Assembly (NCBI GenBank): GCA_016204995.1
Contig: JACQJR010000001.1
Location: 241,132 to 305,131 of the forward strand
Source: Candidatus Microgenomates bacterium
Lineage (GTDB): Bacteria > Patescibacteriota > Microgenomatia > UBA8517 > JACQJR01
Direction of reading: 5' to 3'
Length of the DNA stretch: 64,000 bases
Notes under the pieces: generated by a model
What the model was told of the DNA's origin: nothing
What the model saw: only the letters and a program-made list of their open reading frames with translations
The model's database searches: none
Program-made: the position numbers and the translations under genes
Shown here: positions 24 to 53,588 of the stretch, piece by piece
Numbering within the stretch: the first letter of the stretch is position 1
Layout: every line of letters starts with the position of its first letter

Positions 24-1733
24 TTAAATTTTTTCTAAAATATCAAACGCTGGTTTACCATCCAGAAAATTTATTGTTTTAATTAAATGAAAGTCAGGAG
101 GATAATTAGACGGACTAGTTATTAAAATAGTTCTGCCACTTGTTGGTACTTCCCCTCCACTTTCCATCTTCCACTTTCCATCTTCTCCGCTAGGTATTTG
201 CCAATCATTTACAAAATAAAACTTATCAAAGCGATCTATCCAAAACCAATTAGACTGACCAAAACGAATTAAGTTGGGATCATTTATATAGTTGGCTGGA
301 TCCCAAGGCCAGTAAAATAAAATAAATTCATGTGGCTCGCCATATTTTTTAGTCATAATAATTTGATCATAACTATTATAATTATCTTTGATAAATCTAA
401 CGGCTTCCTTATATCCATATTGCCAAGACCAAGAATATTCTACCCGATATTTACCAGCATAGGTAGTAATGTAATTCTCAAAAAAAGCGGCTAATAAAAC
501 AATATAAAACACTATAGCAATTAATTGAAAATTCTTCTTGGTGATCCACTTCCACATGATTACCAAACCAATAGCTGCAAGAAGTTGCGGCATCGGCTGC
601 ATCACAATACTACGCAAAGCGTGCGGAGCTTCACGAGTAACGCTAGCGGCAATCGGACTGAAGAAAAGCCAAGATAAAATTAGCAAACTTTCTTTATTTT
701 TATTTTTAACTAACCAGATTAAGCCAATAATTATAAAAGCCAACTCTGTAGGATAAATTAAACCCTTACCTGGTATATTAAATTGATATTGGCTGCCACC
801 GTTAAAAAATAAAAATGAAGGTGAGAAATAGGAGAAATAATTTTGTATAAATTTTTCTCCCACAAAAGTAACCTTATTATGCAATAGCAAAGGCAAGGGT
901 GATGGTAATTTAGAGGTATTTCTTTCTTTATTAATTTGAGAGATCGCCCCCTCATCTAAAATTCCCACCCAGCCATAGCGGGCCAAGCCCACCGGATTTA
1001 GAAGCTGCCAAAACATAGGAAGGAAGAGGAGGGCAATAGGCAATAGGCAATAGGCAATAGTTTTCCTTTGCTTTTCCCACATCTCTTGAAAATAGTTTCT
1101 ATAAATAATTAATAAACTAATCATTAAAAGGGGTACGAAAATTCTGACAGAATTATAAGTCCAAACTGATAAACCAAAAAAGGTTATACCTATGAATAGA
1201 CGCCACCTATTACTCAATCCACTAACAAAAAAATAACTACCAGCTATAGTCAGAAATAGAGCTAAATTTGCTTCCACCGCAACACGGGATAAAAATAAAT
1301 CCCAAGGCTCAATCGCGACAAAAAAGGCAGATAAAATACTAATTTCTTGTTTCTTTAATAAGGTTTGTACAAGTAAATAAGTAAAGATTATTGTACCCAA
1401 ACCAGCCAAAACCGAAACTACTCTGACTGAAAATTCATTTAAACCAAAGATGGCAATAAAAGGAACAAGGCTATAAATATAAACCGGCAATTTATAGTCT
1501 CCATAGGCGCGAAAAATAGTAGGTAAAGTTACTCCCCACTCATCTTGACCTGTTTTTAAAATGGAATAAGCATTAACCCCGTGAGAAATTTCATCCCAAT
1601 TAAGAGCAGGAGGCAACTGTGTGACATTATAAAAACGCAGCAAAGCGGCTAAAATAATAATTAAAACTAAAAATTTATTTTTAATGAAGAAATCAATAAT
1701 CCTCTGCATATTTTTCCTTGCTGGGATCAACAA
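24..1733 (-). CDS. GT-C fold membrane glycosyltransferase, GT39/PMT_2 (ArnT/PMT-like) family
   Basis: 569-aa polytopic ORF; N-terminal loop 'NWDEISHGVNAYSILKTGQDEWGV' (DE-loop typical of COG1807/PMT_2); paralogous to 1693..3369, 6188..7996, 58817..60472; carries in-frame (GGCAATA)x4 at 1032-1060; internal Met at 1709 may be true start. Confidence 0.65.
   Translation of the reverse strand: MLIPARKNMQRIIDFFIKNKFLVLIIILAALLRFYNVTQLPPALNWDEISHGVNAYSILKTGQDEWGVTLPTIFRAYGDYKLPVYIYSLVPFIAIFGLNEFSVRVVSVLAGLGTIIFTYLLVQTLLKKQEISILSAFFVAIEPWDLFLSRVAVEANLALFLTIAGSYFFVSGLSNRWRLFIGITFFGLSVWTYNSVRIFVPLLMISLLIIYRNYFQEMWEKQRKTIAYCLLPIALLFLPMFWQLLNPVGLARYGWVGILDEGAISQINKERNTSKLPSPLPLLLHNKVTFVGEKFIQNYFSYFSPSFLFFNGGSQYQFNIPGKGLIYPTELAFIIIGLIWLVKNKNKESLLILSWLFFSPIAASVTREAPHALRSIVMQPMPQLLAAIGLVIMWKWITKKNFQLIAIVFYIVLLAAFFENYITTYAGKYRVEYSWSWQYGYKEAVRFIKDNYNSYDQIIMTKKYGEPHEFILFYWPWDPANYINDPNLIRFGQSNWFWIDRFDKFYFVNDWQIPSGEDGKWKMESGGEVPTSGRTILITSPSNYPPDFHLIKTINFLDGKPAFDILEKI
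1032..1060. repeat. (GGCAATA)x4 heptanucleotide tandem repeat, in-frame in CDS
   Basis: four perfect 7-bp units within 24..1733. Confidence 0.7.
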
Positions 1734-3369
1734 TTAAAACAGCAGGCTTACCATCAGGATAAATAACAGTATGCAGGGTAGCTATTTTTTCAGGAAATTC
1801 GCCTTTTTGCCCCACTAATAAAACTCCTGATAAATTCTGATCTTCTTGGTAATTAATACTACGAAATATATATTTACCAAGATGATATTCGCCTAATTGG
1901 TCTAAAAATGAACGGCCTTCTTTCTCATAACGCAGCCAGTCTGGGGATTGCTTTTGATAATCTCCCGCGTCCCACTGGTTGTAAAACGCCACATAAATAT
2001 GTGGTTCTGATAAAGACCTACTGATAATTACTTGCTTATAATCTCCCTCTATTTTTTTTACTAAATCCATCGCTTCTTTTCTGCCATACAGCATTGAGGA
2101 CGCTCCATGGATTGGCGCGTGATAAAAATAAGATTCCAAGAAAAATAAAATCCCTACCAGCCCAATAGCCCAATAGCCCAATAGCCAAAAGCGCCAGAAA
2201 GTCAACTTATTGTTTTGTCTCCACCAATTAAATAACGTAACAGCGCCAAACGCTGAAAAAATTTGTATGGCCGGCATCATAGTAGCTGCTCGGTTGGCAG
2301 CAAATCCCGGACCTTTGGTCAAGGCCGCTGGGATAGGAGCAAGCAAAACCCAAATTACGATTAATAGTATAGTTAAATCACGTTTTTTAATTACAGCCCA
2401 AATAGCAACTAAGATGAAGGGCAATTCAAATAAATAAAGTGCCCCCATTCCCGGAATCATTCCATAAGTCCACTCACCAGCCCCTTGTGTGAATAAAAAG
2501 ATGGGGGATAAGTAGGAAAAATAATTTTTAATAAATTCACTAGTAATGTAAACTAATTTATTAGAAAAAATTCGTGCTGTTATATCTGGTAAGCCTTGTT
2601 GTACTGCTTCATATCTGCGATCTGCCACCGCCCCCCATCCACCCGTAGGATTAAAAATAGCAATATCACCAGCCCGACTAGTACTACCTCCAAAAATAGA
2701 TAAAAATGATATGCTTAAAAAGAGTAAAAAGATCCCTACCGCTATTTTTACTGATAATGTCTTCTTAATTTCTTGCCGTTTCCACCACAATAACATTAAT
2801 ACAATTAATGGCGTTAACAATTTAGCTGAATGGTAGGAAAAAAGATTAAGGCCGAAAATTACCGCCGCCACCATCAGAAATTGTGGCTTTTTGATACCTT
2901 TTAAGGAGAGCCAAATACCCAAAGGTAATAAAAGTGTCGTTAAATTTGCCTCAAAAGCACCTCTGGATAAAGACATATGCCAAGGAGAAACGGCTAGCAA
3001 TAGTGCCGACAGAAGTGCCATTTTTTGCTCTTTAAATAATTCTTTTACTAATAAAAAGACTATTAATACCCCTAAAATACCTAAGATCGCATTAGGCAAC
3101 CTGACGGCAAATTCGTTTAAGCCAAAAATAGCAACAGTCGGTATGGCTAAATAGGTATAAAGCGGAGCTTTAAAATCCCCGAAAGAACGAAAAGTTAGAG
3201 GTAAGGTTTGACCCCACTGATCTTTGCCGGTTTTTAAAATAGAGTAAGCGTCGTAACCAAAAGAGGCTTCGTCAGGCGTAAAACCATTTGGATAGCTGTC
3301 AATTCGCCACAACCTCAAAAGGCTTGCTAGAACTATAATGGCCAACAAAATCCAACGTGTCTTACCCAC
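1693..3369 (-). CDS. GT-C fold membrane glycosyltransferase, GT39/PMT_2 family
   Basis: 558-aa ORF; 'FTPDEASFGYDAYSILKTGKDQWG' loop, many TM helices; carries in-frame (CCCAATAG)x3 at 2161-2186. Confidence 0.7.
   Translation of the reverse strand: MGKTRWILLAIIVLASLLRLWRIDSYPNGFTPDEASFGYDAYSILKTGKDQWGQTLPLTFRSFGDFKAPLYTYLAIPTVAIFGLNEFAVRLPNAILGILGVLIVFLLVKELFKEQKMALLSALLLAVSPWHMSLSRGAFEANLTTLLLPLGIWLSLKGIKKPQFLMVAAVIFGLNLFSYHSAKLLTPLIVLMLLWWKRQEIKKTLSVKIAVGIFLLFLSISFLSIFGGSTSRAGDIAIFNPTGGWGAVADRRYEAVQQGLPDITARIFSNKLVYITSEFIKNYFSYLSPIFLFTQGAGEWTYGMIPGMGALYLFELPFILVAIWAVIKKRDLTILLIVIWVLLAPIPAALTKGPGFAANRAATMMPAIQIFSAFGAVTLFNWWRQNNKLTFWRFWLLGYWAIGLVGILFFLESYFYHAPIHGASSMLYGRKEAMDLVKKIEGDYKQVIISRSLSEPHIYVAFYNQWDAGDYQKQSPDWLRYEKEGRSFLDQLGEYHLGKYIFRSINYQEDQNLSGVLLVGQKGEFPEKIATLHTVIYPDGKPAVLIVDPSKEKYAEDY
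2161..2186. repeat. (CCCAATAG)x3 octanucleotide tandem repeat, in-frame in CDS
   Basis: three perfect 8-bp units within 1693..3369 encoding 'WLLGYWAIGL'. Confidence 0.7.
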
Positions 3370-3386
3370 TATTAAATTGTAGCATG

Positions 3387-4934
3387 TTAATTGCGGTATA
3401 AGTAGAATCTAGAGGTGCCGTCAGGCTCAATAATATCAGCTACTTTTGTAAAAGGGCCAATTTGAGTTTTTTGGCCATCCACATCGTTAAAATGGTAAAG
3501 AATTAAGGTATTTGCTGGCAAACTTTCTAAATTAATATCGGCCGGTTCAAAATAGTAAGTTTGAACCATTAATTGAGTTTGATTATTTTTGATTGTATAG
3601 AAACGCCAATACCGATCAATAAATTCTATCCTGTTATCTAGATAAATAGCTGTAGCTCGTTTTTTTTGATTTTCGACTATCACCCGCTCCAAAGCACCCG
3701 GGATATTATATTTAAACCATTCATAGGATCTAATCCTATAATCCTTCATATAGTCATACCAAAAATAAGCAAATTGTATGAGTATGAGTATAAGTAATAG
3801 ATGGCAGCCAGCACGCAATAAGTAAGATTTATGGGAAATAAGAAATTTAATACCATAGGTGGCTAGAATTATGGCAAAAGGCAGCATTACTAAGGCCCGC
3901 GAAATACGGTAATGGTCTCCTACTAAAGCCGCCGCAATCGGAGAAGTAAAAACCCCTACAATTAATAATAAATTTATCCTTGTTCTCTCTTTAAATGCCT
4001 GATAAATACCTAAGGGTAAAAATATAACCACTGGCCAAAGAAAAACTCCACTTTTAGCAGTTGAATGAATTAAACTGACATCGCCCCTGGTAAAAAGAAA
4101 ATAGGGATCAAAATAAGCTATGAAAATAGCTATTTTATGGATAATATTTTCAGGGGACAGCAGTGAAATTACACCACTAAGGGGATTTAAGTTAGTATCA
4201 TAAAGGCGAGTATAGCGAACTTGATCTATTAAAGTATCGGGGTATTGAACAAGCCAGGGGATGATGGGTAATATAGGCAAAATAAATCCTACTATTAAAA
4301 TAAGAACTAGTTTTTTCTGTTTTTTAATTTGGGGTAAAAGAAAAATAAATGTCATTAATAAATATATAGGCATCATCACTTTTGCAGCATGGTAACTATG
4401 AATACCAATTCCTAAAACCAGACCAGCTAAAAATAACAACCATATTTTTTTCTTATCTAAATAATAAGCCATTAAAAATAGCCAGCCCAACACAAAAGGC
4501 ACAATATATAAATTATCTAGCAAAAGCCGACTTTGGATAAAATGAACCGGCGTTAAGGCCAGTAAAATAGCCGCTATCATCCCCCATTTCTCGCTGCTAA
4601 ATAGCTTTTTGGTTAAAAAATAAATCAATATCACATCTATTATTCCTACCATTACACTGGGTAAACGAATAGTTATTTCTGAAATCGGCATAAACAGCAA
4701 AAATAAAGATGCTAGATAAACTATTATTGGAGTGGCCCACATTACTCCCAAATGCCAAAAATAAAAAGGTAAAAGTCTGCCGTTTTCATCAAAGCCAGTT
4801 TTGGCAACAGAATAAGCGTTTAAGGAGAATCCTAACTCATCTTGGTTTAAATGGACTGGAGTTCTGGCAAGCAAACTACCATACAACAAAGATGACGCTA
4901 GAACCAGAAAAACCAGTATGATGATTTTCTTCAT
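3387..4934 (-). CDS. GT-C fold membrane glycosyltransferase (PMT_2/ArnT-like)
   Basis: 515-aa polytopic ORF; 'NQDELGFSLNAYSVAKTGFDENG' loop analogous to neighbours. Confidence 0.6.
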   Translation of the reverse strand: MKKIIILVFLVLASSLLYGSLLARTPVHLNQDELGFSLNAYSVAKTGFDENGRLLPFYFWHLGVMWATPIIVYLASLFLLFMPISEITIRLPSVMVGIIDVILIYFLTKKLFSSEKWGMIAAILLALTPVHFIQSRLLLDNLYIVPFVLGWLFLMAYYLDKKKIWLLFLAGLVLGIGIHSYHAAKVMMPIYLLMTFIFLLPQIKKQKKLVLILIVGFILPILPIIPWLVQYPDTLIDQVRYTRLYDTNLNPLSGVISLLSPENIIHKIAIFIAYFDPYFLFTRGDVSLIHSTAKSGVFLWPVVIFLPLGIYQAFKERTRINLLLIVGVFTSPIAAALVGDHYRISRALVMLPFAIILATYGIKFLISHKSYLLRAGCHLLLILILIQFAYFWYDYMKDYRIRSYEWFKYNIPGALERVIVENQKKRATAIYLDNRIEFIDRYWRFYTIKNNQTQLMVQTYYFEPADINLESLPANTLILYHFNDVDGQKTQIGPFTKVADIIEPDGTSRFYLYRN

Positions 4935-9430: not shown

Positions 9431-10194
9431 TTTTGTCCTAACTTCAAAATTAAACTAAGCAAGGTATAACTTATTAATCCATGATACAACTTAGAAGACT
9501 CAATCAGCCATCTATTTGCCATCTCCTTTACCGTACTAGTAACACCCCCATGAACGTGATAAATTTGTGCTTCCGGTAAATAATAAATTGCCAATTTTTC
9601 CTTTCTTACTCTACGGCAATAATCTAGATCTTCAAAATACATAAAAAATTTCTCACCTAATAATCCTACTCTTTCAACCGTTCCGCGGGAAATTAACATG
9701 GCAGCGCCAACCACTGCGTCAACTTTAACTGGTTTATTCCCACTAGGCGCATATTTGTTAAAGGCTTCCATAATATTAAAAAAATATTCTTTAATGGCGG
9801 CCCATATTGTTGGTTCGTGATAACAAGAAGGCTGAATAGATCCATCTAGATTTAACAATCTTGGCGCCGCTATCCCTACGTTATTTCCATCTTTTATAAA
9901 TTCCACCATCTTTTGTATGGCATCTTTAGTAACCTTAGTATCAGGATTTAAAATAAATAAATACTCACCCCTTGCTTCTCTAATACCAATATTAACTGCT
10001 TTCGCAAATCCCAAATTTTCTTTGTTTTCAATTAATTGAATATCTTGTTTTTGCAACTTTTCAACACTACCGTCTGTAGAATTATTATCAATTACTATGA
10101 CTTCCTTATCTTTCGGAGCAAATTTTTTAATTGAAGCAAGACAGGGAAGAAGAAATTTTTTAGTATTGTAACTGACAATAATAATGGAAATCAT
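9409..10194 (-). CDS. GT2 family glycosyltransferase
   Basis: 261 aa; 'IIIVSYNTKKFLLPCLASI...VIVIDNNSTDGS...ENKENLGFAKAVNIGI' classic GT2 (DxD, NLGF) motifs. Confidence 0.8.
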   Translation of the reverse strand: MISIIIVSYNTKKFLLPCLASIKKFAPKDKEVIVIDNNSTDGSVEKLQKQDIQLIENKENLGFAKAVNIGIREARGEYLFILNPDTKVTKDAIQKMVEFIKDGNNVGIAAPRLLNLDGSIQPSCYHEPTIWAAIKEYFFNIMEAFNKYAPSGNKPVKVDAVVGAAMLISRGTVERVGLLGEKFFMYFEDLDYCRRVRKEKLAIYYLPEAQIYHVHGGVTSTVKEMANRWLIESSKLYHGLISYTLLSLILKLGQKWQKSFS

Positions 10195-11066
10195 AGCTGT
10201 TTAAATTGCGCAAAAACTTCTTCATCTGTAACTTTTGCTTCTCTTATTTCCTGTAGTCTTGACTTTTTAATTTGAGATAGTTTAGTAAGAGCCGCTAAAA
10301 CCACCTTGATATAACCAGGGGAACGGAGAAGACGACCCATTAGACCATTGATGTGTTCGCGAAACATTTTTTTACTGGTAATGTTTTTCCAAATCAGCAG
10401 TAGCTGATTTCTCTCTTGGATAAAATTAACATAGCTTTTGCTAAAATACTTACCAATTGTTCCCTCGTGTTTATGTAAAACTTTGGCCCTTGGTTCCCAT
10501 AAAAGTTTATATCCTCTTTTTAATGCTCTATAACATAAATCCACATCTTCCCAATAAAATGGCGCATATATCTCATCTAATCCACCTAACTCATCCCAAA
10601 TAGATTTTCTAAAAGCTCCGCTGCCTCCAGATATCCAGAAGGTTTCATGAAGATTATTTATCCTTTCGCCTGGTTCATGCTGGATGAAACCATCTTTCCA
10701 CAATCCACGACTCCAGGAAAATTTCTCTTCTGCAAAAGAGACACCAAAAACTTTCTCATCATTAAAATGGGGTAGAATTGCCTTAATTAAATTTTTATCA
10801 GGTTTTACATCAGTGTTAAGAAGAATAATAATATCGCCTTGAGCCGCCTTTACCCCTTTATTCACACTCCTGGCAAATCCTAAATTCTTATTGTTTTCAA
10901 TAACTTTGCACTTTTCACTTTGTACTTTTAACTTTTCTATTGATTTATCAGTAGAATAATCATCCACTACTATGATTTCATCCGCCCCCAAATCAACCCA
11001 ACTAGAAAAATTTTTCTCAATTAGATCTTCTCCATTCCAATTAGGAATAATTACTGATGTCATCAT
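10191..11066 (-). CDS. GT2 family glycosyltransferase
   Basis: 291 aa; 'VIIPNWNGEDLIEKNFSS...IIVVDDYSTDKS...ENNKNLGFARSVNKG'; 4-bp overlap with upstream and downstream genes. Confidence 0.8.
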   Translation of the reverse strand: MMTSVIIPNWNGEDLIEKNFSSWVDLGADEIIVVDDYSTDKSIEKLKVQSEKCKVIENNKNLGFARSVNKGVKAAQGDIIILLNTDVKPDKNLIKAILPHFNDEKVFGVSFAEEKFSWSRGLWKDGFIQHEPGERINNLHETFWISGGSGAFRKSIWDELGGLDEIYAPFYWEDVDLCYRALKRGYKLLWEPRAKVLHKHEGTIGKYFSKSYVNFIQERNQLLLIWKNITSKKMFREHINGLMGRLLRSPGYIKVVLAALTKLSQIKKSRLQEIREAKVTDEEVFAQFKQL

Positions 11067-11716
11067 ATTTTTTTTACTTTCACTAAAAATAGCATGCCCA
11101 GCAAAAATTTTTTTACCACCTTTAGATGAAAACCTGATTCTGCAACTAATTCTTCTAAAAAACCATTAGAAAAATTATGCAAATGTGTATGTTGCCAAAT
11201 ATTTTTTCCAGGCCATTTTTGCCACAGAGGCCATACTACACTATGGAAAAGCCAATTTTCGCTAGGTACCAGTACGATAGCATAACCACCGTTTTTTAAA
11301 ACCCGGTGAATTTCTTGCAAAACTCTTAAAGGATCTATTACATGTTCAAGCGCCTCAAGGCAAAATACGGCATCAAACTCACCAGTTTTAAAAGGTAAGT
11401 TGTGTGCATCTGCCACATGAAATTCCATTCCATTATTATTTTTAAACCTCTTCTTTGCATACTCAATTGAACTTTTCAGCACATCTATACCAATTAGTTT
11501 TTTGGCTTTTGTTTTTTCCCACACCACTTTAGTAAAAGTGCCATCAGCGCAACCAATATCTAAAATTACCTCTGCTGGTTCAATTAATTTACTAACTTGC
11601 CTAAAACGCCTGGTGTGCCAAAACCTTTGTAAAAGATTATGCTTAATTGACCGTTCATACCAATCAGGCGGCACATTTTCGTGAAGATGAACCGCGATAT
11701 CGTGTGTGTCTCTCAT
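11063..11716 (-). CDS. class I SAM-dependent methyltransferase
   Basis: 217 aa; motif I 'ILDIGCADGTF', 'FDAVFCLEALEHVIDP' (Methyltransf_11-like). Confidence 0.75.
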   Translation of the reverse strand: MRDTHDIAVHLHENVPPDWYERSIKHNLLQRFWHTRRFRQVSKLIEPAEVILDIGCADGTFTKVVWEKTKAKKLIGIDVLKSSIEYAKKRFKNNNGMEFHVADAHNLPFKTGEFDAVFCLEALEHVIDPLRVLQEIHRVLKNGGYAIVLVPSENWLFHSVVWPLWQKWPGKNIWQHTHLHNFSNGFLEELVAESGFHLKVVKKFLLGMLFLVKVKKI

Positions 11717-16668: not shown

Positions 16669-17493
16669 TCAATTTTTCTGCTGTTGCATTTCCCATAACT
16701 TGGCATATCTGGCAAAAACACTATAACCTTGGTAAAAAGAGAAAATAATACCGGCGGTTCCATCTAAAAATCCTAGTTTTAAAATTAACCGGCCCCATAC
16801 TTCACTTACTACTGGTCTAACAAATCTCCACCATGTCATTTTTGGATGACCGCTATCGTACAATAATTTTGCTTCTATTTCTGACCATTTATTAGTTTTT
16901 TTAATCATATCTTCTAAATTATCCTCTTTTAAATGAATGAAAGCATTTTTTAAATAACCAATTTCTCCCTCAATTTTTGGCTGCTCATGTAATTCTCCTT
17001 CCCAACGGATTAATTTATCTTTTTTAATCAAACGAATGACATAATCAGGGTACCAGCCGCCGTGGCGTAATTCTTTCCCAAAAACAAAATTACGTCTCGG
17101 AATAGCAAAAGCCGCCGGTGACGGGTGACTCGCGGCGGGGAGCCCCACGGAAGGGGCCCCAGAGTTGTTACCTGGTGGAATGGCCGTGGGGCTGCCGCGA
17201 GGCAGGACCCGTCGGCTGATTTCCTCACGTAATTCCAGAGTTACTCTCTCATCTGGATCAATATAAAATAGCCACTCACTTTTTGCCACCTCTTTTCCCT
17301 GATTTCTCCAAGTATCATAACTACCAGCTTTTTGTTTAAAAATTCTGGTGCCATATTTTTTGGCAATCTCTAAAGTTTTATCAGTTGACCCAGCGTCCAA
17401 GATAATAATTTCTCCTAAATCTTTTGCTGATTCCAAACAATCAGTTAATTTTTCAGCCGCATTTTTGGTTAAAATAATTACTGAAATATTCAT
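16669..17493 (-). CDS. GT2 family glycosyltransferase carrying in-frame GC-rich element
   Basis: 274 aa; 'ISVIILTKNAAEKLTDCLESA...IIILDAGSTDKT'; ~32-aa insert 'LPRGSPTAIPPGNNSGAPSVGLPAASHPSPAA' absent from paralogue 18398..19294. Confidence 0.75.
   Translation of the reverse strand: MNISVIILTKNAAEKLTDCLESAKDLGEIIILDAGSTDKTLEIAKKYGTRIFKQKAGSYDTWRNQGKEVAKSEWLFYIDPDERVTLELREEISRRVLPRGSPTAIPPGNNSGAPSVGLPAASHPSPAAFAIPRRNFVFGKELRHGGWYPDYVIRLIKKDKLIRWEGELHEQPKIEGEIGYLKNAFIHLKEDNLEDMIKKTNKWSEIEAKLLYDSGHPKMTWWRFVRPVVSEVWGRLILKLGFLDGTAGIIFSFYQGYSVFARYAKLWEMQQQKN
17118..17215. repeat. GC-rich palindromic element, copy B (in-frame within GT2 gene)
   Basis: GACGGGT 17120-17126, ACCCGTC 17207-17213; internal inverted repeat CCCCACGG..CCGTGGGG; same orientation and reading frame ('HPS' tripeptide) as copies A and C'. 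Confidence 0.6.
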
Positions 17494-18401
17494 GAGTTAA
17501 AACTCCCCTTCCCTAAATTTCCCAAATAATAATCTATCACTCCCCGTTTCTGCCATTTTCTGCCATTAAAAAGTAAGCGGATTGATTCACGCAGCAGGGC
17601 AAATTTAGCTCTCATATTGGCGTATCTAGCAGCAAACAACAGACGATTTCTGGTAATATAATAATCGTTTAAGCTGCTGCCGATGCCTGAACTTTGGGCC
17701 ACTTTATGCCAAAGAATTGCTTTAGGGTTATAAATAATTTTAAAACCGGCTTGTTTTGCCCTTTGGCAAAAATCAGCATCTTCCAAATATAAAAAATAAT
17801 TTTTGTCAAAAAAACCAATTTTGTTAAACACTTCTTTGTTAACAAATAAGCAGGCTCCTGTCGCATAATCTATTTCGCTAGTTTCGTTATATTGCCCTTT
17901 ATCTACCTCATCCACTCCCTGATGTGACAGTAAAACATTCTTCCAATCAATTAAACCACCAGCATACCAAATCACTTTCCCCAGCTCATCTTTTTTATAC
18001 CTACTTTTATGAAATTCAAACCCATTGGCGAAATATATTTTAGGTGATACTATTCCTGCAACAGGATATTTTTCTATTGTTTTAATTAATTGAATGGCTA
18101 AGTTTTTATCTACCACCGTATCATTATTAAGAATCATTACATAATCTGCCTCGTCCTCTAAAGCGGCTCTAATTCCCACATTATTCCCTTCCGCATAGCC
18201 CAAATTCTCCTTGTTTTCTATAATTTTGCACTTTGCACTTTGCACTTTTAACTCTTCCACCAATCCATCTTTACTTCCATTATCCACTACATAAATTGAT
18301 AATTGATAATTGATAATTGATAATTTTTCAATGCTCTCTAAACATTGCATGGTATCTCTTTTGCCATTCCAATTAAGGATTACAATCGCTACTTTTTTCA
18401 T
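17490..18401 (-). CDS. GT2 family glycosyltransferase
   Basis: 303 aa; 'VAIVILNWNGKRDTMQCLESI...VVDNGSKDG...ENKENLGYAEGNNVGI'; contains two perfect heptamer tandem repeats (18225-18248, 18294-18325). Confidence 0.8.
   Translation of the reverse strand: MKKVAIVILNWNGKRDTMQCLESIEKLSIINYQLSIYVVDNGSKDGLVEELKVQSAKCKIIENKENLGYAEGNNVGIRAALEDEADYVMILNNDTVVDKNLAIQLIKTIEKYPVAGIVSPKIYFANGFEFHKSRYKKDELGKVIWYAGGLIDWKNVLLSHQGVDEVDKGQYNETSEIDYATGACLFVNKEVFNKIGFFDKNYFLYLEDADFCQRAKQAGFKIIYNPKAILWHKVAQSSGIGSSLNDYYITRNRLLFAARYANMRAKFALLRESIRLLFNGRKWQKRGVIDYYLGNLGKGSFNS
18225..18248. repeat. (TTTGCAC)x3 heptanucleotide tandem repeat in GT2 CDS
   Basis: perfect; degenerate homologue at ~10900 in paralogue. Confidence 0.7.
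18294..18325. repeat. (AATTGAT)x4.5 heptanucleotide tandem repeat in GT2 CDS
   Basis: perfect; encodes 'LSIINYQLSI'. Confidence 0.7.
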
Positions 18402-19294
18402 TTTGTCAGCCTGCGGAGAACTTTGGTAAGAATAGTGGGTCTTCTCATTCTTTTAGCAACTAACCAATGATCAATTTCTCCTTCGGCAGCGGCTATTTCA
18501 TTATTAACTTCATGCGGATTAAGATTTATGACTTCAAATTTAGCCAGTTCCCAAATTTTTAAATATAATACCAACTCTGAAAACGATTGCAGCAAACAAA
18601 CAGCCAATCCATGCACCCCATCTTTATAGCCTTCTCCCGCTAAAAATCTGCTAACAAATTCTCCGCTGGGTTTGGCAATTAAATCACGCCAGTTAAATTT
18701 ATAACCATCTTCTATTTTAAGTTTCGCTTGAACCGTAGTGTAACGATCAAGTCTCGCTAAATATTGCGATATTGATTGATAGTTGTGATGAACAATGGCT
18801 AAAGGTTCTTCATCTGGCAGATCTTGACCTATACCATGAGTTTCTGGCACTGAATGAATAAGCTCACTCCATAAAACCTGATCTTTTTTAAAAAAACGGA
18901 TATTATAATCCGGCCACCAGCGGGCATGCCTAATCCACTGCCCAAAAATTATATTCTTGCGGGGTAGGCGATAAAAATCAGCCTCACTATCCTGGCTTAT
19001 GCTCTGCAATTTTTTAGCTAATCTATCGGGAATTTCCTCATCAGCATCCAAAATTAAAATCCAGTCGCCCGTGGCTTTACTAAGAGCAAAATTGCGGGCC
19101 GGCTCCACATAACCAATATACTTATGATTAAAGACTTTCGCTCCCAGTTTTTTAGCTATCTCTTTAGTATCGTCGTTAGATTCCATATCTACTACTATAA
19201 TTTCACTAGCTAAATTTTTTATTGAGGCAATGGCCCGAGGTAAGTTTTTCTCTTCATTCCAGGTATTAATGACAACTGATATATTAGACATCAT
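18398..19294 (-). CDS. GT2 family glycosyltransferase
   Basis: 298 aa; 'ISVVINTWNEEKNLPRAIASI...IIVVDMESNDDT...ILILDADEEIP'; paralogue of 16669..17493. Confidence 0.75.
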   Translation of the reverse strand: MMSNISVVINTWNEEKNLPRAIASIKNLASEIIVVDMESNDDTKEIAKKLGAKVFNHKYIGYVEPARNFALSKATGDWILILDADEEIPDRLAKKLQSISQDSEADFYRLPRKNIIFGQWIRHARWWPDYNIRFFKKDQVLWSELIHSVPETHGIGQDLPDEEPLAIVHHNYQSISQYLARLDRYTTVQAKLKIEDGYKFNWRDLIAKPSGEFVSRFLAGEGYKDGVHGLAVCLLQSFSELVLYLKIWELAKFEVINLNPHEVNNEIAAAEGEIDHWLVAKRMRRPTILTKVLRRLTK

Positions 19295-44361: not shown

Positions 44362-44376
44362 ATAAATATAATTTGA

Positions 44377-44394
44377 GGGATCCTATTGGATCCC
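44377..44394. promoter_or_regulatory. perfect palindrome GGGATCC-TATT-GGATCCC in divergent promoter region
   Basis: sits between start of 43153..44361 (-) and trmD (+). Confidence 0.3.
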
Positions 44395-44448
44395 TTCTGC
44401 CTTCAATTTACCAGATAAAACTGCTAAAATACAAGAGTGTAAATTATT

Positions 44449-45159
44449 ATGGTCATAAATATTCTAACTTTATTCCCAGAGATGTTCCGCGGCCCTTTTG
44501 ACCAGTCTATCATCAAAAGGGCACAGGATAGGAAATTGGTTCAAATCAAAACACATGATTTGCGCAAATGGACGATTGATAAACATGGTACAGTAGATGA
44601 CAAACCTTATGGCGGCGGAGCGGGAATGCTCATGATGGTAGAACCAATCTATCGCGCCATCACCGATCTGAAATCTAAAGTCCAAAATCTAACCTCTAAA
44701 GTCATCCTCCTAGATCCTGGCGGTCAACCTTTTAATCAATTAAAAGCCCAGGAATTGTCAAAAATGGAACATTTAATTTTAATTGCCGGGCATTACGAAG
44801 GCGTTGATGCCAGAGTTAAAGAACATTTAATTGACGAAGAAATTTCTATTGGGGATTATGTCTTAACGGGCGGAGAGTTACCAGCTATGGTTATAGTAGA
44901 TACAGTAGTTAGATTAATACCAGGAGTTTTAGAAAAATCTACCGCCACACAGATAGAGTCATTCTCCCCACTGGAAATTGGAAATTGGAAATTGGAAAAT
45001 TCTTTGGAGTATCCTCAATATACGAGACCGGAAAATTTTAAAGGTTGGAAGGTGCCGAAAGTATTATTAGGCGGTAACCACAAAGAAATTGAGAAATGGC
45101 GAAAAGAACAATCTTTGGAACACACCCAAAAACATCGCCCTGATCTCTTAAAAAAATAG
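44449..45159 (+). CDS. trmD: tRNA (guanine37-N1)-methyltransferase
   Basis: 236 aa; '[11 protein letters not shown]', '[17 protein letters not shown]', '[14 protein letters not shown]', '[14 protein letters not shown]', '[10 protein letters not shown]' SPOUT/TrmD blocks. Confidence 0.9.
44973..45000. repeat. (GGAAATT)x3 +GGAAAAT heptanucleotide tandem repeat in trmD
   Basis: encodes 'EIGNWKLEN', an insertion relative to canonical TrmD between ESF and LEYP(H/Q)YTRP. Confidence 0.7.
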
Positions 45160-45169
45160 TCATCCTGAA

Positions 45170-45205
45170 GTTTTGACTTTTGAGATTTGAGATTTGAGAT
45201 TTTTA
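45170..45205. repeat. AT-rich element GTTTTGAC-(WTTTGMG)n, intergenic copy
   Basis: GTTTTGAC then TTTTGAG ATTTGAG ATTTGAG ATTTTTA between trmD stop and convergent 45203..45703. Confidence 0.5.
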
Positions 45206-45703
45206 AGTGTATTTGTCTGCCACTACAAACGCTCCATATGATTCTGGTTTGGTCTTGGCGGTAAAACCAGAACCTGTCACCATTCCTACCACTTCCCGAA
45301 TCATGTCGCGAGTAGGGCCAACTGACCCCACATCAATATGAATTTCTAAATCGTATTTACTGGGAGTAATAATTTTTCGCAAAATCGGCACCAGCTCGTG
45401 AGCCAATTCTAAAGAAAGCAATGTTTCCCGATAAATTTTCTCTCTTAAAACAAATTTCTTTTTTTGCTTTTCTTTATGCCAAAAATAACGGCCGCCATGA
45501 CCAATCCGGTGAATGACAATGGCGCTGACAAAGTCGGTTTCTGTATCACCATTACTTCTCCGAGTCTGGGAATCTGTACCAATGACTAATCTATAGAAAC
45601 TAGTAGCATCTTCATCAATAAATTGGGAAACTTCTGCTGCCACTGCTTCTAAATTCAACTCACCCTTGGTGGGACTCACAAAAAGTCCATTTTCGCTACT
45701 CAT
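45203..45703 (-). CDS. DUF458/YkuK-like RNase H-fold protein
   Basis: 166 aa; 'YRLVIGTDSQ' GTDS block; assignment by resemblance only. Confidence 0.45.
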   Translation of the reverse strand: MSSENGLFVSPTKGELNLEAVAAEVSQFIDEDATSFYRLVIGTDSQTRRSNGDTETDFVSAIVIHRIGHGGRYFWHKEKQKKKFVLREKIYRETLLSLELAHELVPILRKIITPSKYDLEIHIDVGSVGPTRDMIREVVGMVTGSGFTAKTKPESYGAFVVADKYT

Positions 45704-45723
45704 AGCCTAAATTATAGCATTTT

Positions 45724-47104: not shown

Positions 47105-47110
47105 AAATTT

Positions 47111-48696: not shown

Positions 48697-48711
48697 TAAA
48701 AAGAATATAAA

Positions 48712-48957
48712 TTACAAAAGCAGACTTAGGATCAGGGCTGATCCTAAAAGGGCAATGGCAGTATACTCTATCACAACTTCCCAGTAAAGATCGCTATGTA
48801 TCCAATGATGAACTATGCCCCAACTGATGTAAGCCAAAGAACTAGCTACGACCAGGGCAATTTGAAAGGGGCGATCAAAAGAAAATAATTTGAATCCCGC
48901 TATCACAATAATCAAAATTCCTAATAAAACTAGGTAATGAGAAAAATGCCGTCTCAT
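48712..48957 (-). CDS. hypothetical small membrane protein (2 TM)
   Basis: 81 aa, two hydrophobic helices. Confidence 0.3.
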   Translation of the reverse strand: MRRHFSHYLVLLGILIIVIAGFKLFSFDRPFQIALVVASSLAYISWGIVHHWIHSDLYWEVVIEYTAIALLGSALILSLLL

Positions 48958-49784
48958 AATATTGCTCCCTGTTTAAGATTCAAAATTAATAAACCCAAAG
49001 CTGATAGAAAACTTAAATGGGCCAAAGTCCGACCGGAAATACGTACCAGACGCAAATGGGCCAGTACCACCAGATCTACCAGTAACACTAATATTAACAA
49101 CCCCATTATTCCCAAAGATAAATTCCGTCTTAAATCAAAAGAGGTGCTTGCGAGGGTTGCAGGATGGCTTTGGCCACTGGCCAGTTGAGACGTCACCATG
49201 GGTTCGCCTCCATTAAGAACCGCAAACTCGGGAGTGGATCCTAAAAACTGAACCACGATCGTTGTTTGTTTACCGCCTAAATCACCTTGAACAATAGCTA
49301 CCCCAATATCATGATAACGAGACGATAGCAGGTTTTCCCGATGACTGGGAGATGCCATCCAGGCGGCTACCGCATCATGCGCTGAATTAAAATCCCGAGC
49401 CAGGTTTTCTCCGGCATAGCGATATTGATAACCGTTACTTAAAAAAAATGACCAAGGCGTGGTGCCGGTAGGCGAAAAATGAGCCCAATAATCATAGCTT
49501 AACATGTCTTCACCCTTCTTCCGCGCTCCCGCCATTAATTTCTCATTTATTTCCAGTGTAGGTAGACCATTTTGCAGACGCTCGCGGTTAGTTTCTTCAA
49601 TTACTTTTCCCGGCGATAAATCAGAACTGACACCCAGTACTAAACTGGTTTTGGCCAAAGAATTAATAACCAGTTGAGCTAAGATGAAGAGCAGCAAGAT
49701 AACTAAACAGCCGCTGGGAGTAATTATTTTTGCTTTATAATTATTGGCGCGATGAGGAATAAACAAATGGGCAAGCAGTTTCAT
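48954..49784 (-). CDS. CAP/SCP (PR-1-like, YkwD-type) domain protein, membrane-anchored
   Basis: 276 aa; 'YDYWAHFSPTGTTPWSFF...YRYAGENLARDFNSAHDAVAAWMASPSHRENLL' CAP signature; N- and C-terminal hydrophobic segments. Confidence 0.6.
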   Translation of the reverse strand: MKLLAHLFIPHRANNYKAKIITPSGCLVILLLFILAQLVINSLAKTSLVLGVSSDLSPGKVIEETNRERLQNGLPTLEINEKLMAGARKKGEDMLSYDYWAHFSPTGTTPWSFFLSNGYQYRYAGENLARDFNSAHDAVAAWMASPSHRENLLSSRYHDIGVAIVQGDLGGKQTTIVVQFLGSTPEFAVLNGGEPMVTSQLASGQSHPATLASTSFDLRRNLSLGIMGLLILVLLVDLVVLAHLRLVRISGRTLAHLSFLSALGLLILNLKQGAIL

Positions 49785-49796
49785 CTTAAACTAATA

Positions 49797-50714
49797 CTAA
49801 ACCTTTTGGCGGAAAAATTCGATGGTTCTTTTTAGGCCTTCTTCTAAACTTACCTTTGGTTCCCAGCTAACTTCTTTTTTAATTTTGGCAAACGAAGCAT
49901 AATTGGCCATTACATCTCCTGCTCTTTCGCCTAAATCATTAACTTCCACCTTATATCCTAAAATATCAGAAATTTTATTGATGATATCCATCACTTTAAT
50001 ACCTTTTTCTGTGCCGACATTAAAAATATGAAGCCCAGTTAGATTAATCACTGCTACATGTGCCAGGGCTAAATCTTCAATGTAAATAAAATCGCGGATG
50101 CCTTCGCCTTTCCAATACAGAGGAATTGGTTCTTTTGCCAAAGCCGACTTAATAAAATTAGGAATGGCATGAGTTTCCGGTTGATGCAGTTCGCCCGGGC
50201 CATAAGGATTAAAGTAGCGCAAAATTGTACAATCAAAGCTGTATAAATTATGATAAAGCGTACAAAACTGCTCCATAGTCAATTTAGTAATGCCGTAGGG
50301 ATTACTTTGGGCGCCTAAAGGATCATCTTCCATTATTGGTAACTTACTTGGCACGCCATAAACACAAGCGCTGGAAGAAAAGATAATCTTGCGAACTTCG
50401 GTTTTACGCATCGCCTCCAAAAGTTTGACTGAATTGACAATATTATTTTCGGCAAAACTGACTGGATCTTTGACTGATTCCCCCACCTCAATTAAGGCCG
50501 CCATATGAATGACGGTATCATGGCCGGCTAATATTCCTTCCATTCTATATTGATCAGATAAATCTATTTGATAGAAGATGGCTCGACTATCAATTGACTC
50601 TTGATGACCGCGTGATAAATTATCAACCACAGTCACTTCATGTCCGGCATCCAGTAATAATTTAGTAGTCCAGGAACCAATAAAACCAGCGCCGCCAGTA
50701 ACTAGAATTTTCAT
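49797..50714 (-). CDS. galE: UDP-glucose 4-epimerase
   Basis: start taken at internal Met ('MKILVTGGAGFIGS') whose ATG overlaps tsaB stop (ATGA); 'YGITKLTMEQF' YxxxK; C-terminal GalE-like region. Confidence 0.8.
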   Translation of the reverse strand: MKILVTGGAGFIGSWTTKLLLDAGHEVTVVDNLSRGHQESIDSRAIFYQIDLSDQYRMEGILAGHDTVIHMAALIEVGESVKDPVSFAENNIVNSVKLLEAMRKTEVRKIIFSSSACVYGVPSKLPIMEDDPLGAQSNPYGITKLTMEQFCTLYHNLYSFDCTILRYFNPYGPGELHQPETHAIPNFIKSALAKEPIPLYWKGEGIRDFIYIEDLALAHVAVINLTGLHIFNVGTEKGIKVMDIINKISDILGYKVEVNDLGERAGDVMANYASFAKIKKEVSWEPKVSLEEGLKRTIEFFRQKV

Positions 50715-51013
50715 TGATATTTGGCCGCCACCGGCTGCTCTCGCACATTTTGACCATTGACCGGAATATTTAATGCCCATCCTAAAGCATTAGCCACTGC
50801 TATGCCTACCCTCAAACCGGTAAAAGAACCAGGGCCGCTCACTACTTCTACTTCTTTTAAATCGCCAAAAGTGAAGCCATGACTTTTTAACAAATCTTCA
50901 ATTACTGATAATAATTTTTGAGCCTTTTCTTGTCGGGAGTCAGTCCTAACACGATCATTGTCTAAACCAACTACGATTTCTTCGGTATGACTGGTATCAA
51001 TAAAAAGTTTCAA
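50711..51013 (-). CDS. tsaB: TsaB (YeaZ)-like protein, N-terminal domain only (truncated)
   Basis: 100 aa; 'KLFIDTSHTEEIVVGL...VVSGPGSFTGLRVGIAVANALGWALNIPVNG' = TsaB N-domain; C-terminal half absent. Confidence 0.55.
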   Translation of the reverse strand: MKLFIDTSHTEEIVVGLDNDRVRTDSRQEKAQKLLSVIEDLLKSHGFTFGDLKEVEVVSGPGSFTGLRVGIAVANALGWALNIPVNGQNVREQPVAAKYQ

Positions 51014-51489
51014 GTAAGCTCCTCCGGTAATTCAATAAGATGTTTCTCATCATCTGTAACATTAAATTTAATCCACTGCGTATTGTCTGGCAAAAACCGG
51101 CTAATTTTATCCGCCCACTCAATAGCCATAATATTTTCTCTTTTTCCCCAAATCTCATCTAATCCTAAATTTTTAATCTCTTGCTCTAAGTTTTGTTCCA
51201 ACCTGTATAGATCCACGTGATAAAAGTTCATAAGTTTTAAGTTTTTAGTTGTGGTTTTGACATTTGAGTTTTGCGATTTGAGTTTAATTTTATACTTTCT
51301 CATAATGATAAATGTCGGACTGGTAATTCTATTTTTAATTCCCAAACCCTCGGCTAACCCTTGCACAAAAGTTGTCTTACCAGCACCTAAAGGGCCCACT
51401 AAGGCTAAAATCTCCCTGCCAGTTAGTTTTTCCCCAACACGCTTACCTAAATTTTTGGTTTGCTCATCATTATTTGTAGTAATCTGCAT
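51010..51489 (-). CDS. tsaE: tRNA threonylcarbamoyladenosine biosynthesis ATPase TsaE
   Basis: 159 aa; 'LALVGPLGAGKTTFVQGL', 'SPTF', 'YHVDLYRL'; contains in-frame AT-rich repeat insertion between SPTF and HVDLYRL. Confidence 0.75.
   Translation of the reverse strand: MQITTNNDEQTKNLGKRVGEKLTGREILALVGPLGAGKTTFVQGLAEGLGIKNRITSPTFIIMRKYKIKLKSQNSNVKTTTKNLKLMNFYHVDLYRLEQNLEQEIKNLGLDEIWGKRENIMAIEWADKISRFLPDNTQWIKFNVTDDEKHLIELPEELT
51254..51289. repeat. AT-rich element GTTTTGAC-(WTTTGMG)n, in-frame copy inside tsaE
   Basis: GTTTTGAC ATTTGAG TTTTGCG ATTTGAG TTTAATT; encodes extra 'KIKLKSQNSNVKTTT' loop relative to canonical TsaE. Confidence 0.5.
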
Positions 51490-52408
51490 TCAAATTTCTT
51501 CTCCTTCATGCATTTTTTCATTATACCCAACTTCTCTTTTTTTCACAAAGGTAAAAGCAGCTGCCGCCAGTAAACATACACCTCCACCAATTAAAAGAAT
51601 AGGTACCAGAGGAATTCGTCCGCCGAAGACAAACCAGCCGGCTACCTGGGCGGATTCAGGAGTGGCGGAGGGCGAAGAGGTTTGGGCTGCTAAAATTTCC
51701 GGCGAGTTAGTAGGAGTGGCAGATGCTTTGGAACTTAGGCCGGGCGACGGCGTGGGAGATGATGTCTTAGTTGGACTTGGAGTTGGTGATTTGGTGGGAG
51801 TAGGACTGGGAGTTTTGGTGGAGGAAGGAGAAGGGGTAGGTGTGGAAGTTGGAGTAGCAGTGGGTGTCGGAGTTGGAGTGGGTGTAGGAGAATCGGTGGG
51901 GGGTCGGGGTGGGGGTTGCAGAAACGGTAATATTAAGAGTAGTAGAATTATCAGCCCAGGTGGGGCCACTGCCGGCTTGAGTGTATCTGCCTACTTTTAA
52001 GGTGTAGCTTGCTTCTCCTTTGTAATATGAACTTTCCGCATCCGGCTTCACCTCTATGGTGCCGCTCCAGGAATTATCGGAATTCATGGTAATTTGATAA
52101 AACTGGGTGTAATCAAGGGGAGAAGGTTTACCGTTATACCAGGAGCCGGCATTATTTTTGGTATAGCCAAAGTAAGAAGATGGCGCATCTGGGTGGGCTA
52201 AAGCCGCTCTTAAATAATAATTATTGCCAGCAGAATTACTAATAGTTAAACTGATAGTAACCGAGAATGATTCATTATCCGCCACACTGGCCGGAACATT
52301 GCTAATGCTAAAGGCGGCTTGCGCTTTATGATGAAAAGTAAATAAAAACAGTAACGAAGAAATCATTAAGACGAAAATGAAATTAATCGTCTTTAGAAAA
52401 TAACTCAT
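51490..52408 (-). CDS. secreted cell-surface protein (signal peptide, beta-rich domain, Pro/Thr linker, C-terminal TM anchor); apparent frameshift in linker
   Basis: ORFs 51767..52408 and 51490..51969 overlap in different frames within GC-rich (PT)n-coding DNA; N-terminal signal '[22 protein letters not shown]'; C-terminal '[19 protein letters not shown]'. Confidence 0.4.
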
Positions 52409-52412
52409 TACA

Positions 52413-53588
52413 TTAATAAACTCTTACAATATCCACTGTTTTAATATCCGACAAATTATATTTATCCGTCAGCTTTATATTTCCTCCATTCTCCACGAAA
52501 GGATCATTCATAATATAATTATCCCCCTCTTTACCTTTGATAACAATAAAATGATCCGGGCCGGAATAGAGCCCTACTACCACCGGATTACCATTATTCA
52601 GTTCATTATCAATCTTTTGTTTGACGGCATCAAGACCGCAACTTGCACAAACTCTGGTTCTGGTGGCAGTAACGCCTTGTGCAGTCCAACTACCTTGATT
52701 CATATAGCCGGTATTACCAAAAAAAACATTGGGGGAAGCGGCAATATCGGCAGGTTTTAAGCTTTTACCATAGTGAGAAGCAATCATGGCCATAGAGGTT
52801 ACCAGGCAGCCATACTCCGCCAAAGTATCGCTGGAATTTCCCATAGCCATAGTACCCCACTGGCTATCTCGTTGGTTATAATAACAACCCCAACCATCGC
52901 ATTTAGTCTGATTAGACAGAAGACTAGCTCCGCCTTGTCTGGCCACGAAGCGCTTAAAGGCAGCCAGTTGGGCTTTGGCTTGAACCAGCAGTTGTTGATA
53001 CTTACTCTCATCATTTTTGGTCACTTCCAAGAGTTTATTTTTGGCTTCTATCTGCCGGCTCAAATAAATTTTCTGGCTTTCCAGTTTTTTCTGTAAATTC
53101 TCCAGGGCGATTTTTTCTGTCTCCAGGGCGGTTTGCGAAGTTTGCAAGTTAAATAATAAATCCCGATCCCTCTCCTGTAAGAGCTTAAGATAATAAGCGC
53201 GGGAAATCAGACTGGGCAGATCTTTGGCAGTTAAAAGTGATAAAAAGGGGTCACCCAAACGATTAAGCTGATAGGAAGAAATTACCCGCTTTTGATAGAT
53301 AACTGAAAGATTAGTGATGGAATTTTCAATTTTTACGATGGTGGCCGAAAGAGAAGCTACTTCTATTTCTGTCTGATCAATTTTTAGTTGGGCCAGCTTT
53401 ATTTGGGTATCAAAATTGGCAATTTGAGAAGCAAGGGTTTTCTTCTGCTGGCCGATTTCCACCAGTTTTTGTTCCAGCTCCTTAATTTGATTTCTAACAT
53501 CCTGCTCACTTTGAGCGTGAGTCTGGCGGACCACCAAGAGAAAAATTACTATTAATAAACAGCCAAATATTGATAAAATTTTCCACAT
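52413..53588 (-). CDS. PcsB-like protein: signal peptide, coiled-coil, C-terminal peptidase C39-like (PF13529-like) domain
   Basis: 391 aa; long heptad-rich region; C-terminal 'CDGWGCYYNQRDSQWG...EYGCLVTSMAMIASHYG'; immediately downstream of ftsEX. Confidence 0.5.
   Translation of the reverse strand: MWKILSIFGCLLIVIFLLVVRQTHAQSEQDVRNQIKELEQKLVEIGQQKKTLASQIANFDTQIKLAQLKIDQTEIEVASLSATIVKIENSITNLSVIYQKRVISSYQLNRLGDPFLSLLTAKDLPSLISRAYYLKLLQERDRDLLFNLQTSQTALETEKIALENLQKKLESQKIYLSRQIEAKNKLLEVTKNDESKYQQLLVQAKAQLAAFKRFVARQGGASLLSNQTKCDGWGCYYNQRDSQWGTMAMGNSSDTLAEYGCLVTSMAMIASHYGKSLKPADIAASPNVFFGNTGYMNQGSWTAQGVTATRTRVCASCGLDAVKQKIDNELNNGNPVVVGLYSGPDHFIVIKGKEGDNYIMNDPFVENGGNIKLTDKYNLSDIKTVDIVRVY

Follow-up and report, generated by a model that had tools for sequence, protein, structure and literature searches.

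How a run of AT-rich, repetitive DNA came to be read in frame inside tsaE, an essential housekeeping gene with a predicted role in the synthesis of N6-threonylcarbamoyladenosine (t6A), is the question raised by a locus of a Candidatus Microgenomates bacterium. The locus lies within a stretch of 64,000 nucleotides (nt) of contig JACQJR010000001.1, which is referred to here as the window. The original prediction took the extra codons to be a selfish repeat that had inserted into the gene. Our analysis points elsewhere: an array of heptanucleotide simple-sequence repeats, (TCAAAWC)n, that is decayed and in frame probably makes up the insert, and tandem amplification in a permissive loop of TsaE would have generated it.

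The gene that carries the insert is intact. The peptide on which attention was first focused (SPTFIIMRKYKIKLKSQNSNVKTTTKNLKLMNFYHVDLYRL) is found, in exact agreement, in the translation of the open reading frame (ORF) 51010..51489 on the minus strand, which encodes 159 amino acids (aa), and the reading of this frame as tsaE is borne out by its match to Pfam PF02367 (E=1.4e-33, with 116 bits where the cut-off is 26.6). All of the motifs of the family are present, namely the Walker A motif GxxGxGKT, SPTF, the H.D.YR of the Walker-B strand, and EW. Every residue that is invariant in 50 homologues is kept (G32, G35, G37, K38, T39, S57, P58, H91, D93, Y95, R96, E124, and W125), as are T59 and F60 of the SPTF peptide, which are nearly invariant (in at least 90% of the 50). 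An AlphaFold2 model has a mean predicted local distance difference test score (pLDDT) of 89 and a predicted template modelling score (pTM) of 0.86. With Foldseek, it matches the solved TsaE structures 5np9, 6s84, 6n9a, and 1htw, which come from B. subtilis, T. maritima, and H. influenzae, with a probability of 1.0 and template modelling scores (TM) of 0.72-0.78. The product is identified from sequence as a full-length TsaE (YjeE) P-loop ATPase, with its ATPase activity and role in t6A synthesis predicted. NCBI holds an identical protein under a ‘Candidatus’ bacterium, and the next-nearest homologue in a protein search is 61% identical. Among the matches listed, the nearest genome relatives are bacteria of the Microgenomates group of the candidate phyla radiation (CPR), specifically Blackburnbacteria, Woesebacteria, and Levybacteria.

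Residues 6-146 of this TsaE pair with positions 2-122 of the 128 in the PF02367 profile, which leaves about 20 surplus residues. The spacer between SPTF and HVDLYRL is 30 aa long here and mostly 13-15 aa in the non-CPR TsaE genes sampled, in line with the short canonical spacer that had been supposed. When aligned (in two pieces) with B. subtilis YdiB, residues 68-86 are unpaired (net +16), and a 17-aa gap opens at the same site against T. maritima TsaE. The in-frame insert, K67-M87 (KIKLKSQNSNVKTTTKNLKLM; 51229..51291, minus strand), lengthens the surface loop between strands 63-67 and 88-93. It is rich in Lys, Ser, Asn, and Thr and has a net positive charge. A structure model, which had been suggested as a check, places it as low-confidence coil (pLDDT about 50; block 71-80 averages 53, and residues 72-74 fall below 50) between two strands that are modelled confidently. 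The spacer spans 10 to 46 aa in the 120 closest homologues; only seven of them have 30 aa or more, and 14 have 10 aa, with no extension. This loop is hypervariable in TsaE proteins of the CPR, and an insert there is not unusual. The insertion is therefore real and in frame, but less exceptional than its first description as notable implied, since most of the extended versions of the loop are also heptamer arrays.

In the TsaBDE complex of T. maritima, TsaE makes its contacts through helix alpha3, the beta5-beta6 connection, the SPTFT peptide, and Tyr82; the hairpin loop that holds the insert is not among the TsaB or TsaD contacts listed (PMC6009658). From the geometry of the hairpin, we infer that the loop lies at the opposite strand end to SPTF and the Walker-B Asp, far from the ATP site. 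Most likely, what the insert encodes is a disordered loop that is tolerated as a passenger, and probably a neutral one. Taken alone, the insert would have no evident consequence for t6A synthesis, as far as can be judged from sequence.

At the level of DNA, the insert is a degenerate tandem array. Tandem Repeats Finder (TRF) reports it at 51233..51285, with AGTTTTG as the plus-strand unit and (TCAAAWC)n as the coding-strand unit (period 7, 7.7 copies, 70% matches, score 50). In the coding-strand register it reads TCAAATC, GCAAAAC, TCAAATG, TCAAAAC, CACAACT, AAAAACT, TAAAACT. Self-identity at a lag of 7 is 30 of 50 over 51233-51289, a value that only seven regions of the window reach; in shuffles of the whole window, the maximum of this statistic averaged 26.5 and was 31 overall. 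The view that the extra TsaE residues come from in-frame repetitive DNA is upheld by both measures. However, the interval 51254..51289, which had been said to encode some 15 additional residues exactly, is only the best-preserved core of the array and covers codons I68-K78, well short of the whole insert. Because 7 is not a multiple of 3, an array of this kind is read in three frames by turns, and this gives rise to peptides with a period of 7 aa (SQISNLK and KTQNSKL). The array, its frame and position, its homologues, and the excess of heptamers across the genome are direct observations.

The same loop carries the same kind of array in related bacteria. Two relatives share the 30-aa spacer, one of them 59% identical in TsaE (P0003, at locus L081) with TCAAATC TCAAAAC present twice, and the other 61% identical (P0002) with a decayed version of the array. 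The observation that had been named in advance as refuting the idea, related TsaE sequences with an equally long spacer but no repeat-like DNA, is thus not borne out: both of these relatives do carry such DNA, and other relatives have short spacers. In a TsaE that is 45% identical (P0111, locus L082) the loop holds a perfect (TCAAATC)x5.3, in a Levybacteria genome (L007) a perfect (ATCAAAA)x4.4, and in a Blackburnbacteria genome TCAAAGA and TCAAAAA units. Other lineages have unrelated units in this loop, such as TACCAGA, CAGCCAG, ATCCGAA, GCAGGAA, and TCACNAA. Of the 24 TsaE genes with a loop of at least 19 aa and available DNA, 15 have their strongest signal among lags 4-12 at lag 7 (binomial p=2e-9), as do 9 of the 17 that are left when the window and six loci chosen by peptide are set aside. 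The relatives' loci contain eight perfect arrays at period 7, compared with 0, 2, 0, and 0 at periods 5, 6, 8, and 9. The insert is common to relatives that are only 57-61% identical, and for this reason it must be old.

One pair of TsaE genes captures a length change directly. P0032 and P0016 share 77% identity, and the difference in length between them is exactly 21 nt, or three heptamers; the extra nucleotides are GGAAAGG GGAAAGC GGAAAGG and adjoin a native GGCAAAG. As sequence evidence, this pair points more clearly than any other to local, frame-preserving tandem amplification. The genome bin GCA_030647365.1 holds two TsaE genes that are 77% identical, lie on separate contigs (L086 and L087), and differ by this 21-nt array; more than one related strain has probably been mixed in the bin.

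Further variety is seen around these loops. Some heptamer arrays occur as inverted pairs: at L081 5330-5450, in intergenic DNA past the RF-1 gene, a run of TCAAAAC type is followed by the inverted units ATTTGAG, ATTTGCC, ATTTGCG, and CTTTGAG, and the TsaE loops of L045 and L074 also join an array with its reverse complement. The P0075 TsaE loop (DSDPGSTSLDSGLRRNDRNGK) and the C-terminal tail of P0046 (PPPSFPRKRESKNQ) presumably resemble translated GC-rich palindromic repeats, of a type that such genomes commonly contain. If so, other types of repeat also land in or beside tsaE.

Within the window, the tsaE array is one of many. The window contains five perfect arrays in which a heptamer is repeated three times or more, compared with none in 100 dinucleotide-preserving shuffles, and they are built from five different units; there are no perfect arrays at periods 5, 6, or 9-15. 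Period 7 accounts for 14 of the 54 rows of TRF output. Nine of the ten listed period-7 arrays, along with one period-8 array, fall within long open frames. All but one of the frames that bear them have Pfam support, as TsaE, trmD, two GT2 genes (one with two arrays), or two genes of the PMT family. The closest counterpart of the tsaE array lies at 45170..45206 on the minus strand, between a RNaseH_like gene (45203..45703, Pfam PF04308) and trmD. It begins in the stop codon of the former gene and consists of (CTCAAAT)x3 followed by CTCAAAA GTCAAAA C. In a local alignment, 26 of 29 bases are identical between 45170-45198 and 51254-51282, with a score of 44-46 compared with at most 24 everywhere else in the window. 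Thus, the suggestion that the same element occurs elsewhere holds for this one sister site, but no copy of the 36-mer 51254-51289 with three or fewer mismatches was found in the window.

Other genes have arrays of their own. In trmD (44449..45159, plus strand) a perfect (TGGAAAT)x3.86 at 44972..44998 is in frame and 27 nt long; it encodes a 9-aa insert, PLEIGNWKL, that is exactly the gap relative to S. aureus TrmD (3ky7) and sits just ahead of the conserved LEYPQYTRP motif. Two perfect arrays are in frame in a GT2 gene (PF00535; frame 17493..18452, minus strand), TTTGCAC x3.4 at 18225-18248 and AATTGAT x4.6 at 18294-18325, and a decayed heptamer array is found at the same site in its paralogue (10194..11165, minus strand; array 10903..10937). 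This site, after the DxGSxDxT motif, looks like a second hot-spot loop. A gene for a PMT-family membrane glycosyltransferase (27..1733, minus strand) contains a perfect, in-frame (GGCAATA)x4.1 at 1032..1060. The same gene also has an in-frame period-14/7 array at 156-185, and its paralogue (1696..3408, minus strand) has an in-frame period-8 array, (AGCCCAAT)x3.5, of 28 nt at 2159-2186.

Arrays of the CTCAAAW unit were also collected from metagenomes, using four units as the key, in at least 120 contigs; this sample is biased toward that unit by design. In the low-GC contigs, 35 of the 48 arrays that could be classified lie well within ORFs of at least 150 aa. Among them are in-frame arrays in LeuRS, ValRS, TsaD, topoisomerase I (TopA), LepA, and GT2. 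For example, perfect (CTCAAAT)4.x arrays occur in the essential genes for LeuRS (L119 and L123), TsaD (L154), LepA (L186), topoisomerase I (L112), and ValRS (L147), where they are read as peptides of the ISNLKSQ type. The LeuRS proteins of L119 and L123 are 56% identical, and the array occupies one shared site in both, after APEH. In three metagenome GT2 genes (L106, L178, and L189) (CTCAAAW)n sits at the position used in the window GT2, after DxGSxDxT. A further 72 perfect heptamer arrays with other units were found in 120 of the contigs selected for CTCAAAW, and only 4, 13, 8, and 1 perfect arrays were found there at periods 5, 6, 8, and 9. The lengths of CTCAAAW-type arrays cluster narrowly at 32-34 nt, in coding and non-coding DNA alike.

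These observations suggest how the insert could have arisen. A 7-nt unit would be amplified in tandem throughout these genomes through slipped-strand mispairing or a replication error akin to it, slippage being the mechanism that we infer. In coding DNA, the only products to survive would be those that keep the frame and are free of stop codons, of which the gain of three units, 21 nt, and 7 aa is the one clean case seen, and survivors would be confined to loops in which added residues do no harm. The permissive site of TsaE would be the hairpin loop between the SPTF strand and the Walker-B (HVDLYRL) strand. The origin of the array would predate the split from relatives that are ~60% identical; later point mutations would have broken it in this genome, where slippage is probably over.

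Several findings weigh against so simple an origin. When identical amino acids are compared between relatives, the same codon is used at 10 of 13 positions in the insert and 28 of 69 elsewhere (p=0.017), and in a second pair at 10 of 10 and 27 of 64 (p=0.0005). The insert also has the higher nucleotide identity, at 0.76-0.78 compared with 0.61-0.62 in the rest of tsaE. A neutral passenger loop should diverge faster than the remainder of the gene; an AT-rich codon bias accounts for part of the codon conservation, but probably not for all of it. Furthermore, arrays of the same unit occupy orthologous sites across proteins of 45-64% identity, in TsaE, in the array after the RNaseH_like gene, in LeuRS (L119/L123), and in GT2 (L106/L189). 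Neither this orthologous persistence nor the length preference of 32-34 nt is predicted by simple slippage. Periodicity in loop length was not significant at steps of +7 aa among the 120 homologues, with 43 of 69 extended loops in the expected classes and 57% expected by chance, and the 27-nt trmD insert is not a multiple of 21. Both the codon conservation and the orthologous persistence could result if arrays repeatedly contracted and expanded again. A more novel possibility would be that selection acts on the nucleic acid.

It is possible, although we regard it as doubtful, that heptamer arrays form a long-lived ‘accordion’ system in the CPR and some other bacteria and are not the random debris of slippage. 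A few favoured units, including (CTCAAAW)n, would endure at the same permissive loops of essential proteins (TsaE, TsaD, LeuRS, LepA, and GT2) and at the ends of genes. They would be held near-perfect and at ~33 nt by contraction and re-expansion, or by selection on the nucleic acid, and disordered segments with a 7-aa period would be written continually into core proteins. If this were true, it would identify a specific and undescribed source for many of the insertions in CPR proteins.

A dispersed selfish or mobile element, with the octamer GTTTTGAC and its heptamers copying themselves to new sites that include coding loops, is closest to what was first proposed, and we consider it unlikely; such an element would be comparable to the in-frame palindromic elements of Rickettsia genes. 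It would fit the 26 of 29 identical bases of the two window copies, the presence of a CTCAAAW-type unit at three sites in L081, the in-frame occurrence of this unit in many unrelated metagenome genes, and the stereotyped length. However, the units are arranged head to tail, without the inverted termini, hairpin, or conserved flanks of an inserted element. No hairpin or inverted ends were found in the 91-nt mRNA segment, for which the minimum free energy is −1.0 kcal/mol (z=+1.6), weaker than 196 of 200 shuffles. The two window copies have nothing in common beyond the heptamers, and in the flanks of 113 CTCAAAW-type arrays no position exceeds 0.21 bit, the start and end phases being variable and a target motif lacking. 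The octamer does not serve as a signature of the element: it is not over-represented in the window (5 found and 2.4 expected), three of the five occurrences lack adjacent repeats, and it is a mere variant of the heptamer unit. In addition, the many different units, five in the window and those of the 72 other arrays in the selected contigs, do not suit one copying element, and the apparent abundance of the CTCAAAW unit is inflated by the way in which the metagenome sample was selected. Finally, the 21-nt difference between the two TsaE genes is a local amplification of neighbouring sequence, which points away from transposition.

It is somewhat less probable again that the insert is a selected protein feature, a Lys-rich, lineage-specific arm that touches tRNA or the short TsaB, for example, with the repeat serving only as raw material. 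The length of the insert is constant in relatives that are 57-61% identical, its amino acid identity (0.57-0.62) is no lower than that of the remainder, and its proportion of nonsynonymous differences (pN) is 0.19-0.21 compared with 0.27-0.30. It is also positively charged. Furthermore, the TsaB-like (PF00814) products of this clade are only 89-112 aa long, so that the complex may differ from those already solved. On the other hand, among close homologues the loop varies over 10-46 aa with unrelated sequences, and is unextended in 14 of the 120. It is modelled as low-confidence coil, it lies outside the regions through which TsaE is known to make contacts, and its surplus conservation is found at the level of codons, which points to the DNA and not to the protein.

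The least probable proposal is that (CTCAAAW)n provides binding sites, in DNA or unstructured mRNA, for a putative heptamer-reading protein and is kept by selection; the insert shows conservation at its synonymous sites, arrays that are close to perfect have lasted at orthologous positions through deep divergence, an intergenic array is retained straight after the stop codon of orthologous genes (as in L081, where the RNaseH_like orthologue is 64% identical), the length preference is narrow, the mRNA segment is unusually unstructured, and cold-shock proteins bind one heptamer each (PMC4679880), but no binding protein is known or was identified here, units differ widely within one genome, which argues against a single sequence-specific reader, the tsaE copy has decayed to 70% matches, and contraction and re-expansion could give the same conservation without any function.

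Other candidates for the tsaE array were rejected. As an internal promoter, it offers one weak plus-strand match that overlaps it, TTGAGT-17-CATAAT (9/12), with no credible plus-strand gene downstream; a 249-aa ORF on that strand was judged spurious and is antisense to tsaE and a Pro/Thr-rich gene. A phase-variable contingency locus is not indicated in a tract that is matched at 70%, with substitutions in most units, in an intact housekeeping gene. The STRR repeats of heterocyst-forming cyanobacteria share the layout of tandem heptamers, but the nearest relatives here are Microgenomates CPR, and the units of the tsaE array are unlike STRR units. No covariance model of Rfam 15 matched at E≤1 within 43000-53000.

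The genes around tsaE add some context. Downstream, a TsaB-like gene of 100 aa (50711..51013, minus strand; Pfam PF00814, E=7e-15) has a start that overlaps the tsaE stop codon, as expected in an operon. Canonical TsaB is ~230 aa long, and similarly short TsaB-like loci are found in other members of the clade, at L081 12669-12974, L082 7488-7808, L084 10750-11070, L085 15715-15984, L086 587-910, and L087 1934-2272. The TsaB-TsaD-TsaE complex of these bacteria may be assembled differently. On the other side of tsaE, ORFs 51490..51969 and 51767..52408 (both minus strand) overlap by ~200 nt in different frames within a Pro/Thr-rich repeat region, with tandem repeats at 51827-51890. The upstream ORF has a hydrophobic, signal-like N-terminus and the downstream ORF a hydrophobic, anchor-like end. 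These two ORFs may be one surface protein broken by a frameshift that is either genuine or an assembly error caused by the repeats.

The value of the tsaE insert lies in its being an entry point to this wider pattern of heptamers. In the literature searched, nothing specific was found on heptamer repeats in CPR or Patescibacteria, or on these peptide and DNA strings, and in-frame heptamer arrays in the core genes of the CPR appear to be undescribed there. If the pattern is general, it would provide a concrete mutational origin for lineage-specific insertions in CPR proteins. A period of 7 aa in the peptide, together with one of 7 nt in the DNA, could then mark such insertions for annotation and structure prediction, and the arrays would offer a tractable case in which to ask why 7 nt is a favoured unit for slippage in bacteria.

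Rickettsia palindromic elements are dispersed, palindromic sequences of about 100-150 bp with defined ends that occur in frame in protein genes; like the tsaE insert, they add surface residues while the function of a conserved protein stays intact, but the tsaE insert is a non-palindromic array of 7-nt units. The 7-bp repeats in the hmw promoters of H. influenzae form phase-variable contingency loci. They resemble the arrays described here in being short tandem repeats, and their copy number shifts by slippage, as it would here; however, loci of that type switch the expression of surface genes on and off, a mode of action that is closed to a housekeeping gene that is essential and whose array has decayed. 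The STRR heptanucleotide repeats of cyanobacteria, which Vioque is said to have reported in 1997 inside the gene for RNase P RNA as well, reportedly comprise several families of tandem-heptamer units and are tolerated at a permissive position of an essential gene, as in tsaE. They differ in phylum, in unit, and in lying in an RNA gene and not in a reading frame.

Among long simple-sequence repeats, heptanucleotides are reported to be the most abundant class in most prokaryotic genomes, and polymerase slippage has been proposed as their origin (Mrazek and co-workers, summarised in PMC4679880). Those repeats are similar to the arrays described here in being few-copy, head-to-tail heptamers, with period 7 favoured and many units per genome. 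They differ in that units within genes are mostly divisible by three, whereas here 7-nt units are in frame in core genes (tsaE, trmD, and GT2, with LeuRS, TsaD, and LepA in relatives), and one and the same protein loop holds them again and again across a phylum. The TAACTGA repeats of Beggiatoaceae, cyanobacteria, and Bacteroidetes (MacGregor 2015, PMC4679880) are likewise present in 2-6 heptamer copies, mostly of one unit, in distant lineages, and a few of them are read in frame in the stop-free orientation as peptides with a 7-aa period, as here. In contrast, they have another unit, are overwhelmingly intergenic and upstream of start codons, and contain stops in the forward orientation. By the accepted rule, tandem repeats within genes survive when the unit is a multiple of three (PMC4679880, PMC9879509), and the in-frame 7-nt arrays of these essential genes depart from that rule. 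The tandem repeats of Borgs too are perfect repeats in ORFs that add low-complexity, probably disordered segments with the frame kept, but all of their in-ORF units are divisible by three (PMC9879509), whereas the units here are of 7 nt and the frame is kept by the total inserted length alone.

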